Origin: a virus
Taxonomy: Duplodnaviria > Heunggongvirae > Uroviricota > Caudoviricetes
Virus record (IMG/VR): IMGVR_UViG_2778261418_000011
Coordinates: 1 to 15,956 of that record
Strand: one strand, 5' to 3'
DNA: 15,956 nt
The position numbers and the translations under genes were made by a program. Below the pieces are notes generated by a model. That model was not told the DNA's origin. It saw only the letters and a list, made by a program, of their open reading frames with translations, and made no database searches. This document shows positions 345-15,763 of this stretch, piece after piece. Numbering within the stretch: the stretch's first letter is position 1; every line of letters starts with the position of its first letter.

Positions 345-685
345 CAGTGAGTGACCTCTTCAAAGGTACAGTTAAAATCGGTATACATGGCATTATCCGA
401 AATGCTCCACTCCCTGCAGACAACCCGGACAGTCCTGTTGTGTTTTGGCGGACGCCACAAAAAAGCACGAATCCCGGCATGACGGGATAAAAAACTGTCC
501 AGCGCGGCACGGGAATATTCATCTGTGACACGAAATACCGGTTTAAACGTTTTCAGATCCGCATTCAGACCACCAGCCCGTCGCTGTTCATATCCGTCAC
601 CAAACTTTACCGTAATAACTGATGGCTTTCGTGTCGTCTCCATCCCCTCACGGGGGATCCAGTTAAAAACTTCAGGCTCAGGCAC
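344..685 (-). CDS. M: Minor tail protein M
   Basis: Track ORF 344..730 contains ...KPSVITVKFGDGYEQRRAGGLNADLKTFKPVF...FLWRPP..., matching lambda gpM (FGDGY, GLNANLKT, FLWTPP as recalled). The likely start is the GTG at 685-683, which sits 7 nt after a GGAGG and gives 113 aa; the ATG at 700 is an alternative. It overlaps the tape measure stop. Confidence 0.8.
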   Translation of the reverse strand: MPEPEVFNWIPREGMETTRKPSVITVKFGDGYEQRRAGGLNADLKTFKPVFRVTDEYSRAALDSFLSRHAGIRAFLWRPPKHNRTVRVVCREWSISDNAMYTDFNCTFEEVTH

Positions 686-3600
686 TGTATAATCCTCCAT
701 CCCGACGCGATGACTGCATAATTGACACAACCCTGCTGTCGATCAGATCCACCAGTCCCCTGGCTGAGCGCGCATCTATCTCGCCATTGCTCCCTTGATT
801 CTGAATGCTGATGTGATACACGGGAGAATAAACAAATCCACCGCCACCATTCACATTGCCAATGGCTCTGACCCCAAGAGAGCCGTCCGCTGCCCGTGTC
901 AGTGGCATGATAGCTTCAGGCCCGGCCTCGCCCATCAGCCCGGCACCTTTCGCAAAAGCAAAATACGTCGGTGTATCCACAATAGTGTTACTGTAAGCAC
1001 TCAGATTTGCCGATGTGTAAACACCACCTTTTGCGTTTGCCACCGCCCCCGAAATCCATCCGCCGACCGTACCAAGCCACCCTCCGGCACCGGAGAGTGA
1101 CTTCAGTCCGTTAACAATGGCCGCATTCATCAGAATTTTTGAAACTTCCCGGAGAACTGAACTCCCCCAGTTCCTCCACTCCACAACATTCCCGGCCAGT
1201 GCATCGGAAATATTTGATACCAACCCGTCCATCGTGGAAACGACAGCATCTGCCGCCTGTGAAGCATAATCGGTGGCACTGTCTGCCCAGTTGGTCAGTC
1301 CCTCCTGGAGTCCGGCATTCCAGTTATTACGTAAAGCATCGGCCTTTGCATAATAATCCTGCTGATCGCTGAGACGCTCTTCCAGATATTTTTTATTCAG
1401 TTCTTTCTCCTGTTTCCACAGGGCTTCTTCAATTTCTCCGGCCTGATACTGTCTCAGCAGCTCGTTATTTTTCTTCTCAAACGTCTGCCGGATACTCCAC
1501 ATTTCCTGGAGTCGTTCACGCATCCGTGAGCCTTCACCATATCCCAGCAACTGCGCTTCGTCAGATGCCCGGGCACTGGCATTACTGTCCGCCAGACTGC
1601 TCTCATACGCAGCAAGCTGCTCACGAATCTTTTTCTGGTCGATGAGTGCTGCATTCTGCAAAAGCGTTTTTTTCTGCGCTTCTGACAGGGTTGATAATTC
1701 GCCCTGACTGACCTGATATTTCATCTTAGCCAGTTCAGTATTCTGCCCTGCCAGTGCTATCTGTTCTTTTTGCTGTTTAATCAGCCGTTTATAAATATCT
1801 TCTGTTTTTTCCGCTTCGGTCTTTTTATGCGCTTTTGGTTTATTTGCCTGGTTATTTCGCCAGGCATCCAGTGAGTTATTGATATAATTCTGTCTGGCTG
1901 TCTGATACGCCTCTCCCACAAAGCCGAGATCATCCGCAGCATAACCCAGGCGGGCACGCTCACGGGCTTCCCCCTTCAGGCGGGACAGAGCCAGTTCGCG
2001 CTCGCTGTTATTCAGTGCGGTCTGCTGTTTATCATCCAGGGTTGCCTGTGGTAGCCGTAACGGTACATTCACCAGCCCCTGTCGCTGCTGAAGTAATTCA
2101 TTACCGAGCCCGAGAAGGCGATTAAACTCGGTATGCTGCCCATTCATGATCAACAGGGACTGATACGCTTTGTTTTGTTCCGCCGCCTGTTGACGGATCA
2201 ACGCCACCCGTCGTTCTTCCAGCCCGGCAAGCACATCCTGAATGGATTGCGCTTTGCCCTGCATTTGAGTGAGGCGAGACTGTTCAACTGCCAGTTGATT
2301 TGTTGCTTCTGCAAGCCCTTCTGTGACAGTTTTTACCGACGTCATGTGGTTAATCATAAAACCGTTATCGGTTGTCCAGCCCGGGTTTGCCAGCACATAC
2401 TGATAGCCAGCAATTTTTTCCTGTAAGGATTTAATCTTACTTTTCTGCTCGTCAATTAACCTGTTCTGCTCCTTCAGTGCCTGTCGCGTCTTTTCCTCAT
2501 TATCTGACGCTTCAGGAAGCGACATTGCCGACGTTTTCTGGCGAATTTCGTCGATTGTTGCGGCATACTGGCGTGCAGATTCTCTGGCCTGCTCCTGATT
2601 CTGATACATCATGTACCAGGCCGCAGCCCCCAGCATGACGAGTCCCGGCACACCACCAACCAGCCCCAGCGCGCCACTTAATAAACGACTCCCCACTGAC
2701 GTAACATTATTCAGCGTTGTCTGTGCCGCTGTTCTGGCCGCAATATTACGGGTAAGTGATGCCTGGGCAGCTGTCAGCTTCGCTTCTGCTGCGGCCTGCC
2801 TTTCGGTACCGCGAGCAGCAACAACCGCCTGTTGCGCACGATAAACCGCCGCACGCGCCCTGGCAGTTGCTATCTGTGTCCCCCGAAGTTGCGCTTCAGC
2901 AAGAGACACTTCGTTTCTGGCCGCAGTGATTAGCCCGGCAGTTGCAGAGCCAGCAGAAGATGCCATATTGCCAAAATATCGGGCTACCCCGACGGCAACC
3001 AGTGCACCGGCAGCGGTTGCCACGGTGTCAATATTGCCTGCAATACTATTCAGCACACCGGAGAGCGTCTTCGTCACTCCGCTTGCCTCGTTCGCACCAC
3101 CAACCCAGGCCATAAAGGCGTTTTCAACTTTGGTTGCAGAGGATGAAACCGTATCAGGCATTGCCGCATATTCATCACGTAATGCCCCAAGCTGACTAAT
3201 CAGTGCAGGAACAACCTTATCGGCGGTCAGTTTTCCGTTATCCGCCATGGCCTTCAGATCCTTACGGGCAACTCCCATTCCCGCAGCCAGCGCACGAATA
3301 ACACGATCGCCGTTCTCATTCACCGAGTTAAACTCTTCACCGCGCAGCACTCCCTGCGCCAGTGCCTGACTGAACTGCGTGATCACCGAACTGGCTTCTG
3401 CTGTACTGGCACCGGATAATTTCAGGCCCGTGGAGATCGCCTCAGTGACTTTCAGTACTTCCTCAGAACTGTAGCCATACTCCCGCATGGAAGCTGCAGA
3501 GCGGGCAAAAAGGCTGGCGTTATCAGAAAAAGCCGTCCCCGTTCTCTGGCTGATTGCCATTAATTCGCGTTGTGATGCCTGAAAATCATCACTGGACTGT

Positions 3601-3911
3601 GAGGCCTGCTTCAGACGGGCATTGACTGAATTCCACTCATCGGCGAGAGAAATAAGATGACCGGTAGCAAAAGCCCCGGCAAATGCCCCCGCCATGTTCA
3701 GTGCCGAAGATTTAGCTGTATTTATCTGATCCGTCACTTCTGCCAGTGCACGCCGCATTTCACGGGATGCAGCAGCGGACTGTCGGCTTCCATTCTGCAT
3801 GGTGCGGTAGTAATCCTGCCCCATACGCGAAGCCCGGGAGATCTCTGACTGAAATGACCGGGAGTTTGCCGAAATTTTAATAATCAGTTCACGTAATGTC
3901 GCCACACTCAT
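678..3911 (-). CDS. H: Tail tape measure protein (lambda gpH-like), 1077 aa
   Basis: Very long Ala/Gln/Glu-rich coiled-coil ORF with a central hydrophobic Gly/Ala segment and a C-terminus ending ...RRDGGLYSA, like lambda gpH (...RDGGLFS...). It lies between the G/T chaperone and M. The ATG at 3911 is only 1 nt from a GGAG; the GTG at 3905 has 7-nt spacing and may be the true start. Confidence 0.9.
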   Translation of the reverse strand: MSVATLRELIIKISANSRSFQSEISRASRMGQDYYRTMQNGSRQSAAASREMRRALAEVTDQINTAKSSALNMAGAFAGAFATGHLISLADEWNSVNARLKQASQSSDDFQASQRELMAISQRTGTAFSDNASLFARSAASMREYGYSSEEVLKVTEAISTGLKLSGASTAEASSVITQFSQALAQGVLRGEEFNSVNENGDRVIRALAAGMGVARKDLKAMADNGKLTADKVVPALISQLGALRDEYAAMPDTVSSSATKVENAFMAWVGGANEASGVTKTLSGVLNSIAGNIDTVATAAGALVAVGVARYFGNMASSAGSATAGLITAARNEVSLAEAQLRGTQIATARARAAVYRAQQAVVAARGTERQAAAEAKLTAAQASLTRNIAARTAAQTTLNNVTSVGSRLLSGALGLVGGVPGLVMLGAAAWYMMYQNQEQARESARQYAATIDEIRQKTSAMSLPEASDNEEKTRQALKEQNRLIDEQKSKIKSLQEKIAGYQYVLANPGWTTDNGFMINHMTSVKTVTEGLAEATNQLAVEQSRLTQMQGKAQSIQDVLAGLEERRVALIRQQAAEQNKAYQSLLIMNGQHTEFNRLLGLGNELLQQRQGLVNVPLRLPQATLDDKQQTALNNSERELALSRLKGEARERARLGYAADDLGFVGEAYQTARQNYINNSLDAWRNNQANKPKAHKKTEAEKTEDIYKRLIKQQKEQIALAGQNTELAKMKYQVSQGELSTLSEAQKKTLLQNAALIDQKKIREQLAAYESSLADSNASARASDEAQLLGYGEGSRMRERLQEMWSIRQTFEKKNNELLRQYQAGEIEEALWKQEKELNKKYLEERLSDQQDYYAKADALRNNWNAGLQEGLTNWADSATDYASQAADAVVSTMDGLVSNISDALAGNVVEWRNWGSSVLREVSKILMNAAIVNGLKSLSGAGGWLGTVGGWISGAVANAKGGVYTSANLSAYSNTIVDTPTYFAFAKGAGLMGEAGPEAIMPLTRAADGSLGVRAIGNVNGGGGFVYSPVYHISIQNQGSNGEIDARSARGLVDLIDSRVVSIMQSSRRDGGLYSA

Positions 3912-3921
3912 TCTCCGGACG

Positions 3922-3943
3922 AAAAAAAACCGCCGAAGCGGTT
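3922..3943 (-). terminator. Putative intrinsic terminator/attenuator between T and the tape measure gene
   Basis: Minus strand reads AACCGC-UUCG-GCGGUU followed by a U-run (plus-strand A8 at 3922-3929): a 6-bp stem with a UUCG tetraloop and U-tract, immediately upstream of the tape measure RBS. Confidence 0.35.
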
Positions 3944-3951
3944 ATGTTGAC

Positions 3952-4242
3952 TCACTGAGACACGGTTAAAAGCGCGTTTTCCAGCCCGGCAAATGGATCT
4001 GAGGCGCCTTCTGTCTGCTCCTGCTCCCACTGAAGAAGCACATCATTCAGTGGTACTTTAACCCCCTGCGCACCGTAAACAGCTGAAACAATCTGGGCAG
4101 CCCGGATATCAGCCCGTTCGTCCCCCAGCGGGCTGAACCTGTCAAATTCTGCCCACATCATGATTTCTGATGCGGACATTTCCCGGCGTAACTCTGACAA
4201 TGTGCGCCCCATCCTGAGCGCCAGCATCATCAGAAAACGCAT
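3952..4242 (-). CDS. T: Tail assembly protein T frame (C-terminal part of the G-T fusion made by a -1 frameshift)
   Basis: 96-aa ORF in the -1 frame relative to G, starting 12 nt after the G stop. This is the position and arrangement of lambda T; the slippery site is described below. Confidence 0.75.
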   Translation of the reverse strand: MRFLMMLALRMGRTLSELRREMSASEIMMWAEFDRFSPLGDERADIRAAQIVSAVYGAQGVKVPLNDVLLQWEQEQTEGASDPFAGLENALLTVSQ

Positions 4243-4253
4243 CCCCGGAAGTG

Positions 4254-4640
4254 CTACTTTTTTTTAACCTCTCCGGCATCACTGATCAGTTCCAGAGACT
4301 GGCGAAGAAGCCGGGCATGCACCGGGCCATACACGGCAATCACCTGTTCACGATCATCCTCTGAAAATACGGGTTGCAGCCCGGTATCACACAGAACATC
4401 AATGAACAGTTCAACGTCTGCCTCCAGATTTCGGCGGGCACGCTCTGCAACAGATGGCGATGTATCATCTTCCCTGGCTTTAACGATCTCCTGCCAGCGC
4501 AACCAGGCTTCTGCAGAAGGTTCCCGTAACACAACCGTTGCTCCTTCCCATTCAGGCACATCAACGGTTTTATGGCGAAACCCCGACATCGTTGCCAGTG
4601 CCAGATTACGGATATTTTTAGTCATCACATCCATCCTCAT
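4254..4640 (-). CDS. G: Tail assembly chaperone G
   Basis: Acidic ~125-aa ORF directly upstream of the tape measure and downstream of the major tail gene, ending ...GEVKKK on a slippery A-run. The TAATG overlap with the V stop supports the 4640 start; the ATG at 4625 has a better SD (GAGGA, 8-nt spacing). Confidence 0.8.
   Translation of the reverse strand: MRMDVMTKNIRNLALATMSGFRHKTVDVPEWEGATVVLREPSAEAWLRWQEIVKAREDDTSPSVAERARRNLEADVELFIDVLCDTGLQPVFSEDDREQVIAVYGPVHARLLRQSLELISDAGEVKKK
4257..4263 (-). other. Programmed -1 ribosomal frameshift site (slippery heptamer A AAA AAG)
   Basis: Minus-strand mRNA reads GTT AAA AAA AAG TAG. The heptamer A_AAA_AAG is in the zero frame at the last three codons of G, and a -1 slip continues as GTA GCA CTT CCG GGG ATG CGT..., which is the T frame. 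Confidence 0.75.
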
Positions 4641-5344
4641 TAACTGACGGTTACAGTGCAGGAAGTGGAGGTCACTTTGTTAACCGGGCTTGCTGAATCA
4701 GAAATCTCGCAGGTATACGCACCGGCATCACCGGATGCTGCTGATGCCTTACTGAACGTTGCCGCCGTCTGTCCGGAAACAGGAGAACCACCTTTCTTCC
4801 AGACATAAGAATAAGGCGGCACACCACCGGCAGCCTCAACCACCATTTCGAGTTTCGCTCCGGCAGAAACCTGCAGCGTGCTGTTTAAATCGACCTTCAC
4901 TTTCAGCGGTTCTGTCGTCAGCACAGGTTTACCTTTCAGGCGCAGGGAAAACGTTGCAGCCACAACACCATTGGTTCCTGCAGACCAGGTATGCTGACGC
5001 ACCTCTGCCATAAAGGTAAATCCGTTTCCTGACGGAAAAATAACTTTAAAGCCATACGTGGTGTCATTGTCATAGGCACTGCGCAACGCATTCTGGGCAG
5101 CATTGAGGTAAAAGTTGCCTGACATGGAAATCTCTGACGCGGCACCAAGACCGTTAATATTTTCCTGCTCAACAGAACACAGCGTGGTGACATCAATATC
5201 CTGCTTTTGTCCTGCGGTAAACTGCACCTCTTTGATTGTACAGCTCAGGCCAAGATAGCTGGCAGAATCCAGGGTTTCTGCTGTTACCGGTGCAGACGAA
5301 ATCATAATTTTCGTCAGTTGCGAACGCTCAAAATTAGAGGACAT
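4640..5344 (-). CDS. V: Major tail protein (lambda gpV-like) with C-terminal Ig-like domain
   Basis: 234-aa ORF in the V position. The C-terminal ~90 aa (..LKVKVDLNSTLQVSAGAKLEMVVEAAGGVPPYSYVWKKGG...YTCEISDSA...) looks like a bacterial Ig-like fold. RBS GGAG is 6 nt upstream of the ATG. Confidence 0.85.
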   Translation of the reverse strand: MSSNFERSQLTKIMISSAPVTAETLDSASYLGLSCTIKEVQFTAGQKQDIDVTTLCSVEQENINGLGAASEISMSGNFYLNAAQNALRSAYDNDTTYGFKVIFPSGNGFTFMAEVRQHTWSAGTNGVVAATFSLRLKGKPVLTTEPLKVKVDLNSTLQVSAGAKLEMVVEAAGGVPPYSYVWKKGGSPVSGQTAATFSKASAASGDAGAYTCEISDSASPVNKVTSTSCTVTVS

Positions 5345-5361
5345 ACTCGTCTCCTGAAAAT

Positions 5362-5382
5362 AAAAAAAACCGCCAGCGGCGG
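5362..5382 (-). terminator. Putative intrinsic terminator/attenuator upstream of the major tail gene
   Basis: Minus strand reads CCGCC-GCU-GGCGG followed by U8 (plus-strand A8 at 5362-5369), between the stop of the upstream gene (5405) and the V RBS. Confidence 0.35.
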
Positions 5383-5404: not shown

Positions 5405-5749
5405 TCAGGCTATTACCTGAAATTCAAGCGTGGCTCTGCTCAGACGGGATTCAGGATCATAACCCTGCGTTTTAGAAATAACGGAGGGTGCAAGTTCCCT
5501 CACCGCATCAAGCGCCTGTTCCCGGATATCATCTGCGTCATCAGGCACCGTTGCCCAGACATCGATCTGCACGGTAATTCTGGATTCAGCCTGACCATCA
5601 AGCACATCAGACGCCGTGTCAGACACCACAGAAAACACCAGCCACGGCGGAGATACCGCAGGTTTTCCCTCCGTCAGCGGGACCACATAAGGATAAACCT
5701 GTCCTCCGGCCAGTTGAGACAGCAGGGAATACAGTGTGGCTTCCCTCAT
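5405..5749 (-). CDS. Tail completion / tail terminator protein (lambda gpU position; family not recognised with certainty)
   Basis: 114-aa ORF between the gp10-like gene and the major tail gene, with an ATGA overlap to the upstream stop. Assignment rests on gene order; no obvious similarity to lambda U in my recollection. Confidence 0.55.
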   Translation of the reverse strand: MREATLYSLLSQLAGGQVYPYVVPLTEGKPAVSPPWLVFSVVSDTASDVLDGQAESRITVQIDVWATVPDDADDIREQALDAVRELAPSVISKTQGYDPESRLSRATLEFQVIA

Positions 5750-6538: not shown

Positions 6539-6856
6539 CTACAAAGGAATAAAACGATAAGGCTCCAGCAGAGAAGAAAAACCAAACGGGACTGGTGCCT
6601 TGCTGACATCTGAGGAATTTTCCCGGTTTTCGTACCAGTGTCCGACCAGCAACATGAGCGCCAGCAAAACATCATCAGCTATAAGCACCCCGTCAGGATC
6701 ACCTTCCGGCACCGTCTCCTCATAAAGCTTACGGTTGATAAAATTTTCTGCCTTGCGGCAGGCAGCCCGGAAATACAGCATCAGTAACTCATCATCAGTT
6801 GCATCATCTGTATCAATACGGCACTGCGCCCTGAGTTTTTCCACTATTGCTGCCAT
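6539..6856 (-). CDS. Head-tail connector protein (gp6-like)
   Basis: Track ORF 6539..6901 would overlap the capsid stop. The ATG at 6856 (MAAIVEKLRAQ...) has AGGAG with 6-nt spacing and is the likely start. Acidic ~105-aa protein immediately after the capsid gene. Confidence 0.65.
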   Translation of the reverse strand: MAAIVEKLRAQCRIDTDDATDDELLMLYFRAACRKAENFINRKLYEETVPEGDPDGVLIADDVLLALMLLVGHWYENRENSSDVSKAPVPFGFSSLLEPYRFIPL

Positions 6857-6900
6857 CAGAAACTCCTGCCCGCAACACTGTGCGGGCATAAAAAACCGCA

Positions 6901-8127
6901 TTACGCAGCGGCTTTCTGGCGGGTTGCGGCCCCAATTTTCATCAGCTTAATCGCCTGAGAATCCACCAGCATACCGCCGGTTCGCTTGGTGGTGTAAAAA
7001 CCCACAAACGGTTTATTGGTGTACGGATCGCGCAGGATACGGGTACCGATGCGATCAACGATGGTATAGCCACGTTTGAAGTTACCAAACGCAATGGCTT
7101 TTGCATCGGCAGCAATATCCGGCATCTGTTCATTCTCAACGATGCCATACCCTGCCAGAGAAGAAGGCTGACCCAGCTCAATACCCGGACGCCACAGATA
7201 ATTTCCGTCGTTATCCTTCAGCAGACGAATGGCAAACAGGCTGCTGTTGTTCATCATAAACTTCGCGCCGCTGCGGTGCGCCTTGCGCAGGGTGTAAATC
7301 AGTTTAATGATCGCATCGGCAGTCACGCCGGAAGCCGCACCGGAAGCAATGTGCTGAAGTTTGCCAAACGCACGGGTCTTGTCATCTTCATCGGTGGACT
7401 CGTAAGCCAGAAAACCTTTTGGTTTTTTGCTGCCGTCGCCACTGGTAAAGGCAATTTCTTCCTGCTCGGCAAATTCCAGCGCCAGCTCACTGTTGATCCA
7501 GTCTTCCACATTGAAGAAAGCATCATCGAGCATTTTCTGGGTGGCCTGCGGGTTGCCGTAGATTTCCCCCATAAAGGGTTCAATCAGACCCAGTTTTGAG
7601 GTGGCGGTTTCCGGACGAGCATCCGTTTCCCCCACCCATCCGGACGTTGTGCCGCCCAGATTCACCAGTTTTTTATAATCCGAGCCACCGAGGGTGATCA
7701 CAGTGGCTTCCTGGCGCATCACCACCTCATCTTTCAGCAGCGTCAGGATGGTACGATCCAGTTCTTCCGGAATGGCATAACCACCATCTTCATCATTACC
7801 TACCTGAAGCGCCTTACGTTCAAGTTCACGCAGACCGTCTTCACGCCCCTTGCGCATAAATCCGATAAACGCTTCTTTGTGTTCACCGGCAACTTTATTT
7901 TGCGTGCCGCCTGCCGGACGCTTGATGTCTGCCAGCTCTTTTTCCAGGTCGCTTTTCAGGTTCTCCAGCTCGCTGATTTGCCCGTTCAGGCTTTCCACCT
8001 GTTCGGCCAGCTTGCCTTTTTCCTGTTCGATCGCGTCAATGCGCTTGTCGTTTTTTGCCTTAAAATCGTCAAACTTCTGCTGCAAATCCTGCGCGACCTG
8101 TTCAACGTCTTTAATATCAACAGCCAT
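6901..8127 (-). CDS. Major capsid protein, HK97 family, with N-terminal coiled-coil delta (scaffolding) domain
   Basis: 408-aa ORF whose N-terminal ~100 aa is a heptad-rich coiled coil (..QKFDDFKAKNDKRIDAIEQEKGKLAEQVESLNGQISELENLKSDLEKELADIK..) followed by a capsid body. It sits directly after a prohead protease with no separate scaffold gene, as in HK97. Confidence 0.9.
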   Translation of the reverse strand: MAVDIKDVEQVAQDLQQKFDDFKAKNDKRIDAIEQEKGKLAEQVESLNGQISELENLKSDLEKELADIKRPAGGTQNKVAGEHKEAFIGFMRKGREDGLRELERKALQVGNDEDGGYAIPEELDRTILTLLKDEVVMRQEATVITLGGSDYKKLVNLGGTTSGWVGETDARPETATSKLGLIEPFMGEIYGNPQATQKMLDDAFFNVEDWINSELALEFAEQEEIAFTSGDGSKKPKGFLAYESTDEDDKTRAFGKLQHIASGAASGVTADAIIKLIYTLRKAHRSGAKFMMNNSSLFAIRLLKDNDGNYLWRPGIELGQPSSLAGYGIVENEQMPDIAADAKAIAFGNFKRGYTIVDRIGTRILRDPYTNKPFVGFYTTKRTGGMLVDSQAIKLMKIGAATRQKAAA

Positions 8128-8140
8128 TATTTACTCCTGA

Positions 8141-8791
8141 TTAAAATTTAAGATTTTTCAGTGCATTCAGTGCGGCATCCACATCCTCAGCATCACGCAG
8201 GGATAAAGCGCCATATCCCCCGGCCATGAATGCTTTGGCCTGGGTTCGCGAGAGTCCAACATCGCGCAAGACCCGCTCAATAATTTTCTGATCAGGGATC
8301 TCCCCACGCGCCAGCGCATTTTTCACATCGCTGATGCGTGCTTCATCATTGGAAGGAAACGTCACCAGACTGACCTCCCACAGGTCGATCTCTTTCAGCA
8401 GGAATACCCCTTTTTCCCGGTCGTACTCCCAGTCTTTCAGGATGTAGCCAATAGAAAGGCCGGTTAAAGAACCGGCCTTCATATGGGCATGTGCACGTTT
8501 TGCCAGGGGATCATCATCAATGAGTAATCGTCCCCTGACATAAAGCCCGACATCATCTTCTTTCATTTCGGTGTACACACCGATGGGCTCATCCATGCGG
8601 TGCTGCCAGAGCAACGCAGGCAGCGCCTTTTTTTCGCTCCATTTCTGGAGTGTTGTGGTAAAGGCTCCGGGGACCACCACATCATCGTGGCTGTCCTTAA
8701 CACCAAAAACAGAACCGTAACCTTCAAATTCCCCGGAATCACTGACGGATTTCAGGTTCAGCGGTATATCAAGACGCTGTTTTGTCTGCAT
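8141..8791 (-). CDS. Prohead protease, HK97 family
   Basis: Track ORF 8141..8821 lies between portal and capsid. The likely start is the ATG at 8791 (MQTKQRL...), with GGAGAG 5 nt upstream; it overlaps the portal 3' end. Confidence 0.85.
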   Translation of the reverse strand: MQTKQRLDIPLNLKSVSDSGEFEGYGSVFGVKDSHDDVVVPGAFTTTLQKWSEKKALPALLWQHRMDEPIGVYTEMKEDDVGLYVRGRLLIDDDPLAKRAHAHMKAGSLTGLSIGYILKDWEYDREKGVFLLKEIDLWEVSLVTFPSNDEARISDVKNALARGEIPDQKIIERVLRDVGLSRTQAKAFMAGGYGALSLRDAEDVDAALNALKNLKF

Positions 8792-13473: not shown

Positions 13474-13656
13474 TCAGTTCTGCAGACACTGCCGAACACC
13501 GTCAACAATTTCGCAGACCTGAGAAGCCGTATCGAAAAGCTGGCGCGCCTTATCCAGGCTGACGCATCCCACCAATAAAAAAGGCACCAGTATCGCTACC
13601 AGTGCCCATTTCGCCGCCGTTCGCGGCATTCTGTGTGTCCAGTGTTTTCGCGCCAT
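13474..13656 (-). CDS. Small putative lipoprotein (60 aa; lipobox LVGC, ~30-aa mature peptide with 3 Cys)
   Basis: MARKHWTHRMPRTAAKWALVAILVPFLLVGCVSLDKARQLFDTASQVCEIVDGVRQCLQN has a basic n-region, a hydrophobic h-region and an L-V-G-C lipobox. Its start lies 1 nt after the stop of the upstream 37-aa ORF. Confidence 0.45.
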   Translation of the reverse strand: MARKHWTHRMPRTAAKWALVAILVPFLLVGCVSLDKARQLFDTASQVCEIVDGVRQCLQN

Positions 13657-14559: not shown

Positions 14560-14941
14560 TGCCGCCTCCTCCACCCCGCAGGCGGGAAAACAGGACGGAC
14601 ACCAGCGATGCAATATCCTGTTGGTGGATAAACGACAGAATCTTTACCGACACCACCGATACCAGCACCGCACACAGTGCATCCGCCGATGTACCGTCAT
14701 AACCTGTTTTTGCTGCAATCCAGGCTGACAGCACGCGCGCTCCCAGCACGCCGACAATGAACGACACCAGAAAATGTGCCGCCACCCGCCAGGCTGAAAG
14801 CGCCTGCGGCATCGTTGCCACAAACAACGCTCCGGCGAACGCCCCAAACACAATCCCGAAATCCGTCCCGGTAAACAGTCCGAATACCGTCGCCCCGCCG
14901 AGCGCAGCGGCTGTACCAGAACCGGATAAGGGTTCAGACAT
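14549..14941 (-). CDS. Holin-like membrane protein A (130 aa, several Gly/Ala-rich transmembrane helices)
   Basis: First gene of the lysis cassette, with GGAG 8 nt upstream of the ATG. Its Gly-rich C-terminus (RLRGGGGGNVK) is encoded by the SD of the next gene. Confidence 0.6.
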   Translation of the reverse strand: MSEPLSGSGTAAALGGATVFGLFTGTDFGIVFGAFAGALFVATMPQALSAWRVAAHFLVSFIVGVLGARVLSAWIAAKTGYDGTSADALCAVLVSVVSVKILSFIHQQDIASLVSVLFSRLRGGGGGNVK

Positions 14942-15183
14942 ACTTTTTCTCCTGTAAAGAAAAAAGGGCCACCAGCAGCCCGCAAAAAAACGCCCACCAA
15001 AGGCACCCGCAGATGCCTTTGGTGTGGAGTTATTTGATGTGCGCCGGTCGTGGCGCGAGGAAGTGAAATAAGACTTACCTGAAATTAAGGTTAATCTTAT
15101 GGTTTAAACCATTTTTAATGCTTAGTAATATGAACTCGTCCCCAGAAGGGGCCAATACTTATTCTTCTTCACGGACTTTGTCC

Positions 15184-15215
15184 CGCGGCGTTAATCCGAC
15201 AGCCGCGCTTTTTTT
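15184..15215 (+). terminator. Plus-strand-oriented terminator-like hairpin
   Basis: CGCGGC (15184-15189), 12-nt loop, GCCGCG (15202-15207), then C and T7 (15209-15215). Confidence 0.4.
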
Positions 15216-15250
15216 GCGCCATATTCATCGCTGACTTATATGGCATTGCC

Positions 15251-15286
15251 ACACGGACATTATCAGTGTCCGTGTTTTCTTTTTTT
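15251..15286 (+). terminator. Plus-strand-oriented intrinsic terminator
   Basis: Perfect 9-bp stem ACACGGACA / TGTCCGTGT with a 7-nt loop, followed by TTTCTTTTTTT. Confidence 0.55.
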
Positions 15287-15297
15287 GAATTCAGAAT

Positions 15298-15324
15298 AAA
15301 AAAAACCGCCCAATGGAGGCGGTT
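15298..15324 (-). terminator. Minus-strand intrinsic terminator between the tRNA array and the lysis cassette
   Basis: Minus strand reads AACCGCC-UCCAUUG-GGCGGUU followed by U8 (plus-strand A8 at 15298-15305). Confidence 0.6.
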
Positions 15325-15688
15325 GGTCAATGCATGAGATCAATCATTTTTATTGTAATAGAAATCGAGGTGTCGGGTGCCTCCCGAAATATCCATCCCT
15401 ACAACAGATATTGTGATTCCCCGTTAAACCACTATATAAACCACCCTCGCACTGAGGAACACCTCTGCGGTGCTGTTTACAACACCAGAATGATGCTTCA
15501 CCGACCCTGCCAGGAAATACAAAATCTCCACCGATAATGCATCATTCTGCTGCCGTAAAAATTCAGCACTGAGGCTACACCCGACCTCAAATCATAGCCA
15601 GAGAACAGAATACCATTTAAACACAATCCGCTCCCACGTAATAAAAAATACGCCAGTGCTGTAATACAATAAGGCTTATTACAAATGT

Positions 15689-15763
<75 letters not shown>

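Follow-up and report, generated by a model that had tools for sequence, protein, structure and literature searches.

The late region analyzed here contains three short GC-rich hairpins, termed A, B, and C, each of which runs directly into a tract of eight uridines. They are probably ordinary Rho-independent terminators of independent origin, predicted from sequence to act on the coding strand of a Q-type lambdoid late operon. The window, i.e. the whole stretch of 15,956 nucleotides examined, is part of the late region of an HK97-like lambdoid prophage of E. coli. All of its genes are carried on the minus strand, which is the coding strand and to which all features described below belong. In the order of transcription, the relevant genes encode a gp17-like tail terminator or tail completion protein (5405–5749), the major tail (tube) protein with a C-terminal Ig-like domain (4640–5344; phrog_158, E = 8e-109), the tail assembly chaperones G (4640–4254) and T (4242–3952), which together span 3952–4640 and include a −1 slippery site, A_AAA_AAG, at 4263–4257, and the tape measure protein (678–3911). 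The window stops short of the Q region; in close relatives, Q-type antiterminator genes are found upstream. In prophage L271 (M19; 94.8% identity over 98% of the window), a Q gene adjoins the tRNAs; in L275 (98.2% over 97%), a DUF1133 protein occupies the Q position and is followed by a terminator-like hairpin; and L002 carries Q.

The 13-mer AAAAAAAACCGCC is present in the window as three exact copies, at 3922–3934, 5362–5374, and 15298–15310, and a search of the window that allowed one mismatch returned no others. Dinucleotide shuffling gave an expected count of 0.04, and none of 200 shuffles reached three copies. The recurrence of a GC stem plus U8 motif, as proposed in the initial annotation, is thus well founded. 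Standard terminators are defined as a GC hairpin abutting a U-tract of 7–9 nt (PMC9388147). On the transcribed strand, A, B, and C each form a short GC-rich hairpin, with a U-tract of this length starting right after the stem at all three sites, in keeping with the earlier description of terminator-type elements within the late operon. A stricter terminator scan (ΔG ≤ −7 and at least six T in eight) identified seven sites on the coding strand of the window and one on the other strand, compared with 0.22 ± 0.48 sites in shuffled sequences. When 40–200 nt of upstream sequence was included in the folding, the three hairpins persisted at mean pair probabilities of 0.88–0.99; here, pairing was carried by the G-C core, the outer A-U and G-U pairs of B and C being weaker.

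Beyond the 13-mer, A, B, and C have nothing in common, their loops and 5′ flanks being mutually unrelated, and a repeat family or mobile element was rejected as the source of the motif. To judge from these sequences, the common 13-mer is a convergence on terminator design, a coincidence of form. Given that the exact U8 plus GGCGG form of A is specific to the window, the identity of the three copies is to be read as coincidence and not as a conserved repeat. The original view of one and the same element recurring finds no support in this comparison, since the loops and flanks differ and the 13-mer is not kept at site A in relatives.

Element A (5362–5382; ΔG −7.0 kcal/mol, five G-C pairs) occupies the 60-nt gap between the tail-completion and major tail genes. 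It consists of a 5′ arm CCGCC (5382–5378), the loop GCU (5377–5375), a 3′ arm GGCGG (5374–5370), and U8 (5369–5362), and its pair probability in context is at least 0.92. The Shine-Dalgarno (SD) sequence AGGAG (5355–5351) of the major tail gene follows 6 nt past the U-tract and precedes the ATG at 5344–5342, these signals together spanning 5342–5355; this U-tract, SD, and ATG layout is conserved in an alignment of related loci. The exact sequence of A was found only in the window and in L003, and GGCGG followed by T8 or longer occurs at this site in about nine loci of other lineages. Most close relatives have CCCGCC-GCT-GGCGGG followed by T6–7, with a ΔG of −12.0, of which the hairpin in the window appears from its sequence to be a weakened derivative.

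Conservation of site A was assessed by a structure-anchored scan of each sequence, which was also used for the counts at site B; a MAFFT alignment placed the different stem types in different registers. The gap measures 60–72 nt in all 241 related loci, and 227 of these have a hairpin and T-run. Loops vary freely (GCT, ACT, AGAT, TCCG, TACG, CATTGC, and others). By contrast, pairing is kept while the stem sequence changes: double changes distinguish CCCGCC/GGCGGG, GCCGCC/GGCGGC, and CCCGGC/GCCGGG, an A-T pair replaces C-G in GACCGCC/GGCGGTT, and flipped pairs are seen at three positions of the stem. That the pre-tube terminator is kept across the wide HK97-like family with compensatory changes argues for function, and the comparison suggests that A belongs ancestrally to the HK97-type tail module and has been conserved there.

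The same stems bear on whether these are elements of translation, in which the U-rich tract before the SD would serve as an enhancer bound by ribosomal protein S1 and the hairpin would insulate the ribosome-binding site (RBS), boosting translation of the tube and tape measure proteins. The U-rich tract does reach from the hairpin to 5–12 nt before the SD in all lineages. Such a role is nevertheless very improbable: a stem held by compensatory changes and always abutting the U-tract is terminator-specific and unneeded for S1, the same design ends unrelated cargo genes, and no gene start lies near element C.

A role in gene dosage or mRNA stability is unlikely as the principal explanation, although it is compatible with intrinsic termination and not exclusive of it. 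Here, transcripts would in part terminate at the elements or be cut by RNase E in the U-rich tract, and the upstream segment would keep the hairpin as protection at its 3′ end. The late mRNA would thereby be divided into head, tube-plus-chaperone, and tape-measure/tip portions, whose relative amounts would be set in this way even in the presence of Q. The elements do flank natural stoichiometric units, one following the capsid gene, one preceding the tube gene, and one separating V-G-T from the low-copy tape measure, and a terminator-like element is present in each head-tail module gap of 40 nt or more. In HK97, too, hairpins follow the capsid and tube genes, the post-capsid one being annotated as a putative terminator. 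Site A is also conserved where a moron never occurs, which suggests a role in lytic growth, and partial termination is one of two possible roles proposed for intra-operon terminators, the roles of which are stated to be unknown (PMC8022706). Against this, Q-loaded RNA polymerase is described as processively ignoring terminators over thousands of base pairs (PMC9388147), and a terminator placed right before the abundantly needed tube gene would cut, not raise, its mRNA.

Element B (3922–3943; ΔG −8.0 kcal/mol, four G-C and two A-U pairs) is made up of a 5′ arm AACCGC (3943–3938), a UUCG tetraloop (3937–3934), a 3′ arm GCGGUU (3933–3928), and U8 (3929–3922). It is followed, within 3903–3916, by the tape measure SD GGAG (3916–3913) and a probable GTG start (3905–3903), for which an ATG at 3911 is an alternative; in prophage L275, which is 98% identical, PGAP starts the gene at the corresponding GTG. 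The gene placement first proposed was correct for both elements, A lying 18 nt before the major tail start codon and B just before the tape measure gene. The stems of A and B are short (5–6 bp, ΔG −7 to −8 kcal/mol), and their efficiency may be modest.

In HK97, the gp15 moron is located in the slot between T and the tape measure gene. Among relatives, this slot contains a cargo gene in 165 of 233 loci, with inserts of 283–2029 nt representing 19 protein clusters, of which a few are frameshifted copies of another cluster. The cargo comprises varied membrane and lipoprotein genes. Filled slots share the promoter architecture GTGAC[A/T]-N17-TAGGAT, and 161 of the 165 inserts end in a hairpin and T-run just ahead of the tape measure RBS, an arrangement that fits insulation of lysogeny-expressed cargo from silent structural genes. 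A hairpin identical to B ends the cluster-2 cargo gene in siblings of the L028 group and in more distant lineages; in the sibling phages, whose tube proteins are 98–99.6% identical, this cargo gene encodes a membrane zinc-ribbon protein.

A moron, as the term is passed on in PMC3594210 from Juhala et al. (2000), is a promoter, gene, and terminator inserted between neighboring late genes. Like the lambdoid morons, B occupies the classic T/tape-measure slot and is identical in sequence to the terminator of a sibling cargo gene. Unlike them, the slot in the window has no extra gene and no promoter of its own, so that at most the factor-independent terminator part is present: no ORF was found in the T-H gap (40–46 nt), and GTGAC[A/T]-N17-TAGGAT does not occur in the slot, which has GTGAGT and no −10 element. 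These sequences identify B as the orphan terminator of the T/tape-measure moron slot, forming its 3′ boundary.

Whether B still acts is a separate matter, and it is possible, if on the whole unlikely, that in this prophage B alone is a neutral scar, the functionless leftover of a deleted cargo cassette. The missing −10 element and cargo gene, the identical hairpin that ends the zinc-ribbon gene in siblings, and the HK022 example of a T-H junction that needs no hairpin in the absence of a moron are all consistent with such an origin. However, T has a normal, full-length C terminus, and neither the T C termini nor the junction sequences reveal a clear breakpoint by which a deleted slot could be told from one never filled. 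All 68 empty-slot loci also retain an intact hairpin that varies only in T-run length (7–9), which says little given that these loci are very closely related.

A wider proposal, speculative and rather unlikely when both of its parts are taken together, is that the T/tape-measure junction of HK97-type tails constitutes a standardized cargo slot with fixed boundaries and that the pre-tube terminator acts quantitatively in lytic growth. The left boundary may be the promoter, with a −35 element within the T stop codon (caGTGAC), a spacing of 17 nt, and the TAGGAT −10 element, and a terminator resident immediately ahead of the tape measure RBS may form the right boundary. Recombination may exchange unrelated lysogeny genes between these boundaries, and the orphan terminator in the window may then mark a slot that has been emptied or is yet to be filled, the terminator not being moron-borne. 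If the pre-tube terminator does act quantitatively in lytic growth, Q antitermination would not be absolute.

The description of the elements as attenuator-like was not upheld. True attenuators would be conditional terminators controlled by an alternative fold, a leader peptide, a ligand, or the position of a ribosome. One arrangement of this kind can be envisaged at B, where the T stop codon lies only 8 nt upstream of the hairpin and a terminating ribosome could occasionally mask the 5′ arm, T being translated only after a rare −1 frameshift. This reading was rejected, and its probability is negligible: with 40–200 nt of upstream context, no competing antiterminator fold was found, the regions surrounding A and B have unremarkable folding z-scores (−0.28 and −1.03), and the sequence upstream consists of structural-gene 3′ ends and not of leaders. 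An Rfam search of the window at gathering thresholds returned three tRNAs only, with no leader or riboswitch.

Element C (15298–15324; ΔG −11.4 kcal/mol) has the form AACCGCCU-CCAUU-GGGCGGUU with U8, in which an 8-bp stem (15324–15304; five G-C, two A-U, and one G-U pair) is followed by the U-tract at 15305–15298. Upstream of it lie a tRNA-Lys/Thr/Gly array and then some 365 nt of conserved non-coding sequence; the holin gene follows after about 350 nt, C thus preceding the lysis genes. Four other prophages keep the stem and show a variable loop. A permissive Rfam search of 14940–15700 gave sub-threshold matches only, the best being STnc100 (19 bits versus a cut-off of 47). Right before the holin RBS, at 14966–15024, two tandem hairpins (folding z = −5.3) comprise a 13-bp stem followed by GGCG and U7 and then GGGCUGCUGGUGGCCC followed by U6. 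A weak hairpin after the capsid gene, AGCCGC-UGCGUAAU-GCGGUU with U6 (6888–6913), straddles the major capsid stop codon; it is unstable in context, with pair probabilities down to 0.00–0.33, and its predicted action as a terminator is doubtful.

Intrinsic termination thus remains the probable explanation for A, B, and C, and we infer actual termination, read-through by Q, and a biological role along the following lines. A would be the ancestral terminator of the tail module between the tail-completion and major tail genes, B would close the cargo slot from which cargo gene and promoter are absent here, and C would end the tRNA/non-coding unit. In polymerase not loaded with the late antiterminator, the hairpin would form in the exit channel and slippage on the U-tract would lead to release. 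Such polymerase could have started at a moron promoter or a spurious promoter, or have entered by read-in during lysogeny, so that the structural genes would stay silent in the lysogen and lysogeny-expressed cargo would be a closed unit. During lytic growth, Q-loaded polymerase from PR′ would read through all of the elements; dependence of downstream expression on antitermination, which the initial annotation also anticipated, is by analogy the standard lambdoid reading, with Q as the antiterminator. In the lysogen, B may have nothing to stop, because no recognizable promoter lies upstream of it in this prophage.

For annotation, the three sites and the weaker post-capsid one can be labeled predicted intrinsic terminators, and the gap before the tape measure gene is recognizable as an empty moron slot. 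The post-capsid element, the position of B at the 3′ boundary of the moron slot, and that of A at an HK97 putative terminator had been overlooked in the initial annotation. The central question for biology is the role of such elements, not their existence.

Neither A nor B is required by lambdoid design, as phage lambda has no hairpin at the U-V or T-H junction; only 7 nt separate its U and V genes, and its T gene overlaps H. HK022 has the pre-tube hairpin and lacks both moron and hairpin at the T-H junction, and a general lambdoid feature was rejected on the basis of these two phages. The logic is nonetheless that of lambda tR′ and Q, in which an antiterminator that is loaded at PR′ and stays bound to the polymerase overrides terminators, with the difference that A, B, and C are located far beyond the promoter-proximal terminator. 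In P22-like phage L, Rho-independent terminators are predicted inside the late operon (PMC8022706). As in the window, these are found at a module boundary within a single-promoter antiterminated late operon, although phage L is of another type, the junction is a different one, at the end of the procapsid module, and the sequences are not known to be related. Both roles suggested for them are among those weighed above.

The closest correspondence is with HK97, in which the genes flanking the sites match those of the window by Pfam and PHROG. As intrinsic-terminator sites, A and B are real but not new, because the HK97 RefSeq record (NC_002167) already annotates a putative terminator at both junctions, together with five more along the rightward structural-gene region, all of these being themselves predictions only. 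At both junctions, the orientation of the elements with respect to the genes is the same, as is the layout of hairpin, T-run, and RBS. HK97 8398–8422, after the gp15 moron and before the tape measure gene gp16, corresponds to the junction of B; in contrast to the cargo-free window, HK97 has gp15 and another hairpin there, CCCGC-TATCAA-GCGGG. HK97 6692–6719, before the major tail gene gp12, is the positional equivalent of A, and its stem, CCCGCC-AGAT-GGCGGG TTTTCTTTTT, is nearly identical to that of the close relatives of the window; the window's own A lacks the outer G-C pair, which has been lost, and carries two additional U. The conservation of this pre-tube terminator makes HK97 a convenient phage for a deletion test.

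All real genes of the window lie on the minus strand, with tRNA-Lys, tRNA-Thr and tRNA-Gly rightmost (15921-15689). Moving leftward, the tRNA array is followed by a gene-free stretch of ~750 nt, two holins and an M15 endolysin, an HNH endonuclease, the small and large terminase, portal, prohead protease and HK97-fold major capsid protein, four head-tail connector genes, the major tail (tube) gene (5344-4640), the chaperone genes G and T with an A_AAA_AAG frameshift site and, leftmost, the tape measure gene and minor tail gene M. The closest matches among sequenced phages, Evi and phi467 for example, are siphophages of Escherichia coli (95-96% identity), and a prophage of E. coli CM2010-0578/1 is 98% identical across 97% of the window. 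In relatives, the tRNAs are preceded, at a distance of a few kb, by either a Q-type antiterminator gene or, in the Q position, a DUF1133 gene. Given this gene content, these relatives and the upstream Q-type or DUF1133 genes, the window is, as judged from its sequence, a lambdoid late operon of the HK97 structural type.

The window contains exactly three copies of the 13-mer AAAAAAAACCGCC, where 0.04 would be expected, and all three lie where the initial annotation had placed a GC hairpin followed by U8; that observation was borne out well above chance. On the minus strand, element A (5382-5362) folds as CCGCC-GCU-GGCGG followed by U8 (dG -7.0 kcal/mol), element B (3943-3922) as AACCGC-UUCG-GCGGUU followed by U8 (dG -8.0 kcal/mol) and element C (15324-15298) as AACCGCCU-CCAUU-GGGCGGUU followed by U8 (dG -11.4 kcal/mol). 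A strict terminator scan (dG ≤ -7, at least 6 T in 8) returned seven sites on the coding strand of the window and one on the other, against a baseline of 0.22 ± 0.48 sites in dinucleotide shuffles. The standard form of an intrinsic terminator is a hairpin directly abutting a U-tract of 7-9 nt (PMC9388147), and this is the predicted form of A, B and C.

The further proposals that a single element recurs, and that it is attenuator-like, were not supported. The loops and flanks of A, B and C are unrelated, and the exact sequence of A was found in only one other locus (L003); the shared 13-mer reflects convergence on a common terminator design, in which the stem is closed by GGCGG before the U-run. 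All three hairpins persisted when folded with 40-200 nt of upstream context (mean pair probability of 0.88-0.99), no competing fold appeared within that context, and an Rfam search for a leader or riboswitch gave no match. Thus, the term attenuator, in its conditional sense, is unsupported.

Polymerase lacking the late antiterminator would most likely undergo plain termination at A, B and C, and Q-loaded polymerase would read through them. Such polymerase has been reported to ignore terminators across thousands of base pairs (PMC9388147). Intra-operon terminators were described in the phage L genome paper as not unique among lambdoid late operons and of unknown role, with two possibilities raised: partial termination that lowers downstream mRNA, or the halting of spurious transcription begun without antitermination (PMC8022706).

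The tail-completion and tube genes are 60 nt apart, and element A fills this gap; the AGGAG Shine-Dalgarno sequence of the tube gene comes 6 nt past the end of the U-tract. The HK97 reference record has a "putative terminator" at precisely this junction (CCCGCC-AGAT-GGCGGG TTTTCTTTTT). Among 269 related loci gathered from IMG/VR and GTDB genomes using three tube-protein queries, the gap measured 60-72 nt and was free of insertions in all 241 that had both flanking genes; the scan detected a hairpin and T-run in 227 of these 241. The exceptions were a group in which the stem has one mismatch, a locus carrying two mutations in the stem, and another whose T-run is interrupted. The loop and the sequence upstream of the hairpin vary freely, and stem pairing is kept through double changes (CCCGCC/GGCGGG, GCCGCC/GGCGGC and CCCGGC/GCCGGG) or, in GACCGCC/GGCGGTT, with an A-T pair in place of C-G. 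In close relatives, the majority form is CCCGCC-GCT-GGCGGG followed by T6-7 (dG -12.0). Relative to this form (L047, L004 and others), a G is replaced by T at position 5370 of the window, on the boundary of stem and T-run, leaving a shorter stem (dG -7.0 instead of -12.0) and a longer U-run, of 8. The L169 group of loci has independently acquired an analogous change. HK022 has a different tube protein, yet a hairpin and T7 precede its tube gene; lambda has no hairpin before its tube gene, and the U-V gap is 7 nt. The role of A may be either insulation or partial termination, and its conservation at a site that never holds cargo hints that it may function during lytic growth.

Element B lies within the 40-46 nt separating the T stop codon from the tape measure start. 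The latter is probably GTG at 3905 rather than ATG at 3911, given that the GTG is 7 nt after GGAG, the ATG only 1 nt after it, and PGAP picks the equivalent GTG in the 98% identical prophage. It was for HK97 gene 15, at this same T/tape measure junction, that the term "moron" was first used (PMC3594210), and the HK97 record has a putative terminator annotated directly after that gene. In a survey of this junction (the T-H slot) in 233 loci, inserts of 283-2029 nt were present in 165, and a hairpin and T-run immediately before the tape measure ribosome-binding site closed 161 of them. The last ORFs of the inserts form 19 protein clusters, a few of which are frameshifted copies of another, and include gp15/YebO-like proteins, several lipoproteins and a membrane zinc-ribbon protein. 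In the other 68 loci, all of the window's own clade, the slot is empty and the terminator retained, differing only in T-run length (7-9). In sibling phages (tube protein 98-99.6% identical), and in more distant lineages as well, the zinc-ribbon cargo gene ends in a hairpin identical to B (AACCGCTTCGGCGGTT). HK022 has neither moron nor hairpin at this junction.

Reading of the first 25 nt past the T stop codon (L132, L171, L120, L148, L086, L195, L267 and others) revealed a promoter-like layout in at least 58 of the 165 insert-bearing loci, spanning at least eight clusters of unrelated cargo genes: a -35 GTGAC[A/T] overlapping the T stop codon, 17 nt, and a -10 of TAGGAT or similar. This -10 is absent from the window, where, of the parts of a moron, the terminator alone is found, with no gene and no promoter, so that B falls outside the definition of a moron. 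From these comparisons, B is best described as a putative cargo-slot terminator orphaned in this prophage, and insulation is favored as its role because it is tied to lysogeny-expressed cargo. In one sibling phage (L070, 4393-4827), the zinc-ribbon gene is split into two ORFs, a pseudogene with its terminator intact, possibly an intermediate toward the empty slot.

Upstream of element C are the tRNA array and then a conserved non-coding stretch of ~365 nt; the lysis genes lie downstream of it. Four other prophages keep the stem of C and differ in its loop. The non-coding stretch (15324-15689, minus strand, from tRNA-Gly to C) is conserved in five prophages with an invariant block, UCGGGAGGCACCCGACACC, and may be an unannotated RNA ending at C; the only Rfam hint was a sub-threshold STnc100 match (19 bits against a cut-off of 47). 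Opposing C is a predicted plus-strand terminator (15251-15286; an 11-bp stem, then UUUUCUUUUUUU), which relatives keep through compensatory changes, with CACGGACA/TGTCCGTG in place of CACGAGCA/TACTCGTG or the reverse. To the left of this terminator, no gene is apparent on the plus strand. This arrangement resembles the convergent small-RNA pairs reported in EHEC prophages at the moron site downstream of the late promoter PR′ (PMC4104026). Directly upstream of the holin ribosome-binding site is a tandem pair of hairpin-U elements (14966-15024, minus strand), the first with a 13-bp stem and GGCG between stem and U7.

Other terminator-like hairpins were observed on the minus strand. One (6888-6913; AGCCGC-UGCGUAAU-GCGGUU and U6) spans the major capsid stop codon, and its fold is unstable in context; HK97 likewise has an annotated putative terminator past its capsid gene. 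Next come a second hairpin (GCCCGC...GCGGGC), an AGGAG and, at 6856, an ATG, which, rather than the overlapping ATG at 6901, is therefore the probable start of the predicted head-tail adaptor gene. Downstream of the endolysin, a strong 11-bp hairpin with U6 (13582-13607) falls within a 60-amino acid lipoprotein-like ORF (13474-13656; lipobox LVGC). This ORF may encode an o-spanin, and the hairpin may be a terminator or may simply be signal-peptide coding sequence. When the coding strand of the 98% identical relative (L275) was scanned from the Q position onward, terminator-like hairpins were found after the Q-position gene and the next small gene, followed by the equivalent of C, the pre-holin element, a doubtful hairpin with a poor T-run within the protease gene, the post-capsid element, A and then B. 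A weaker hairpin, AACCGCC-CCCG-GGCGGTT, with a weak T-run and below the scan threshold, was seen by eye in the gap before J (3292-3352 of L275). Every gap of at least 40 nt in the head-tail module of L275 contains such a terminator-like element. L275, the closest full-length relative, also has a TerB-family gene and a DUF3927 gene (19791-20365) inserted between its tRNA region and its holin gene.

Terminators of this kind are already known, and the initial interpretation of A, B and C was partly right and not new. To it the survey adds how widely A is conserved, the presence of inserts in the T-H slot of 165 of 233 loci and a promoter-like architecture common to many different cargos. The closest known counterparts are the putative terminators that HK97 itself has annotated at the junctions of A and B, the terminators of morons, the intra-operon terminators of phage L and the Q/tR′ logic of lambda.
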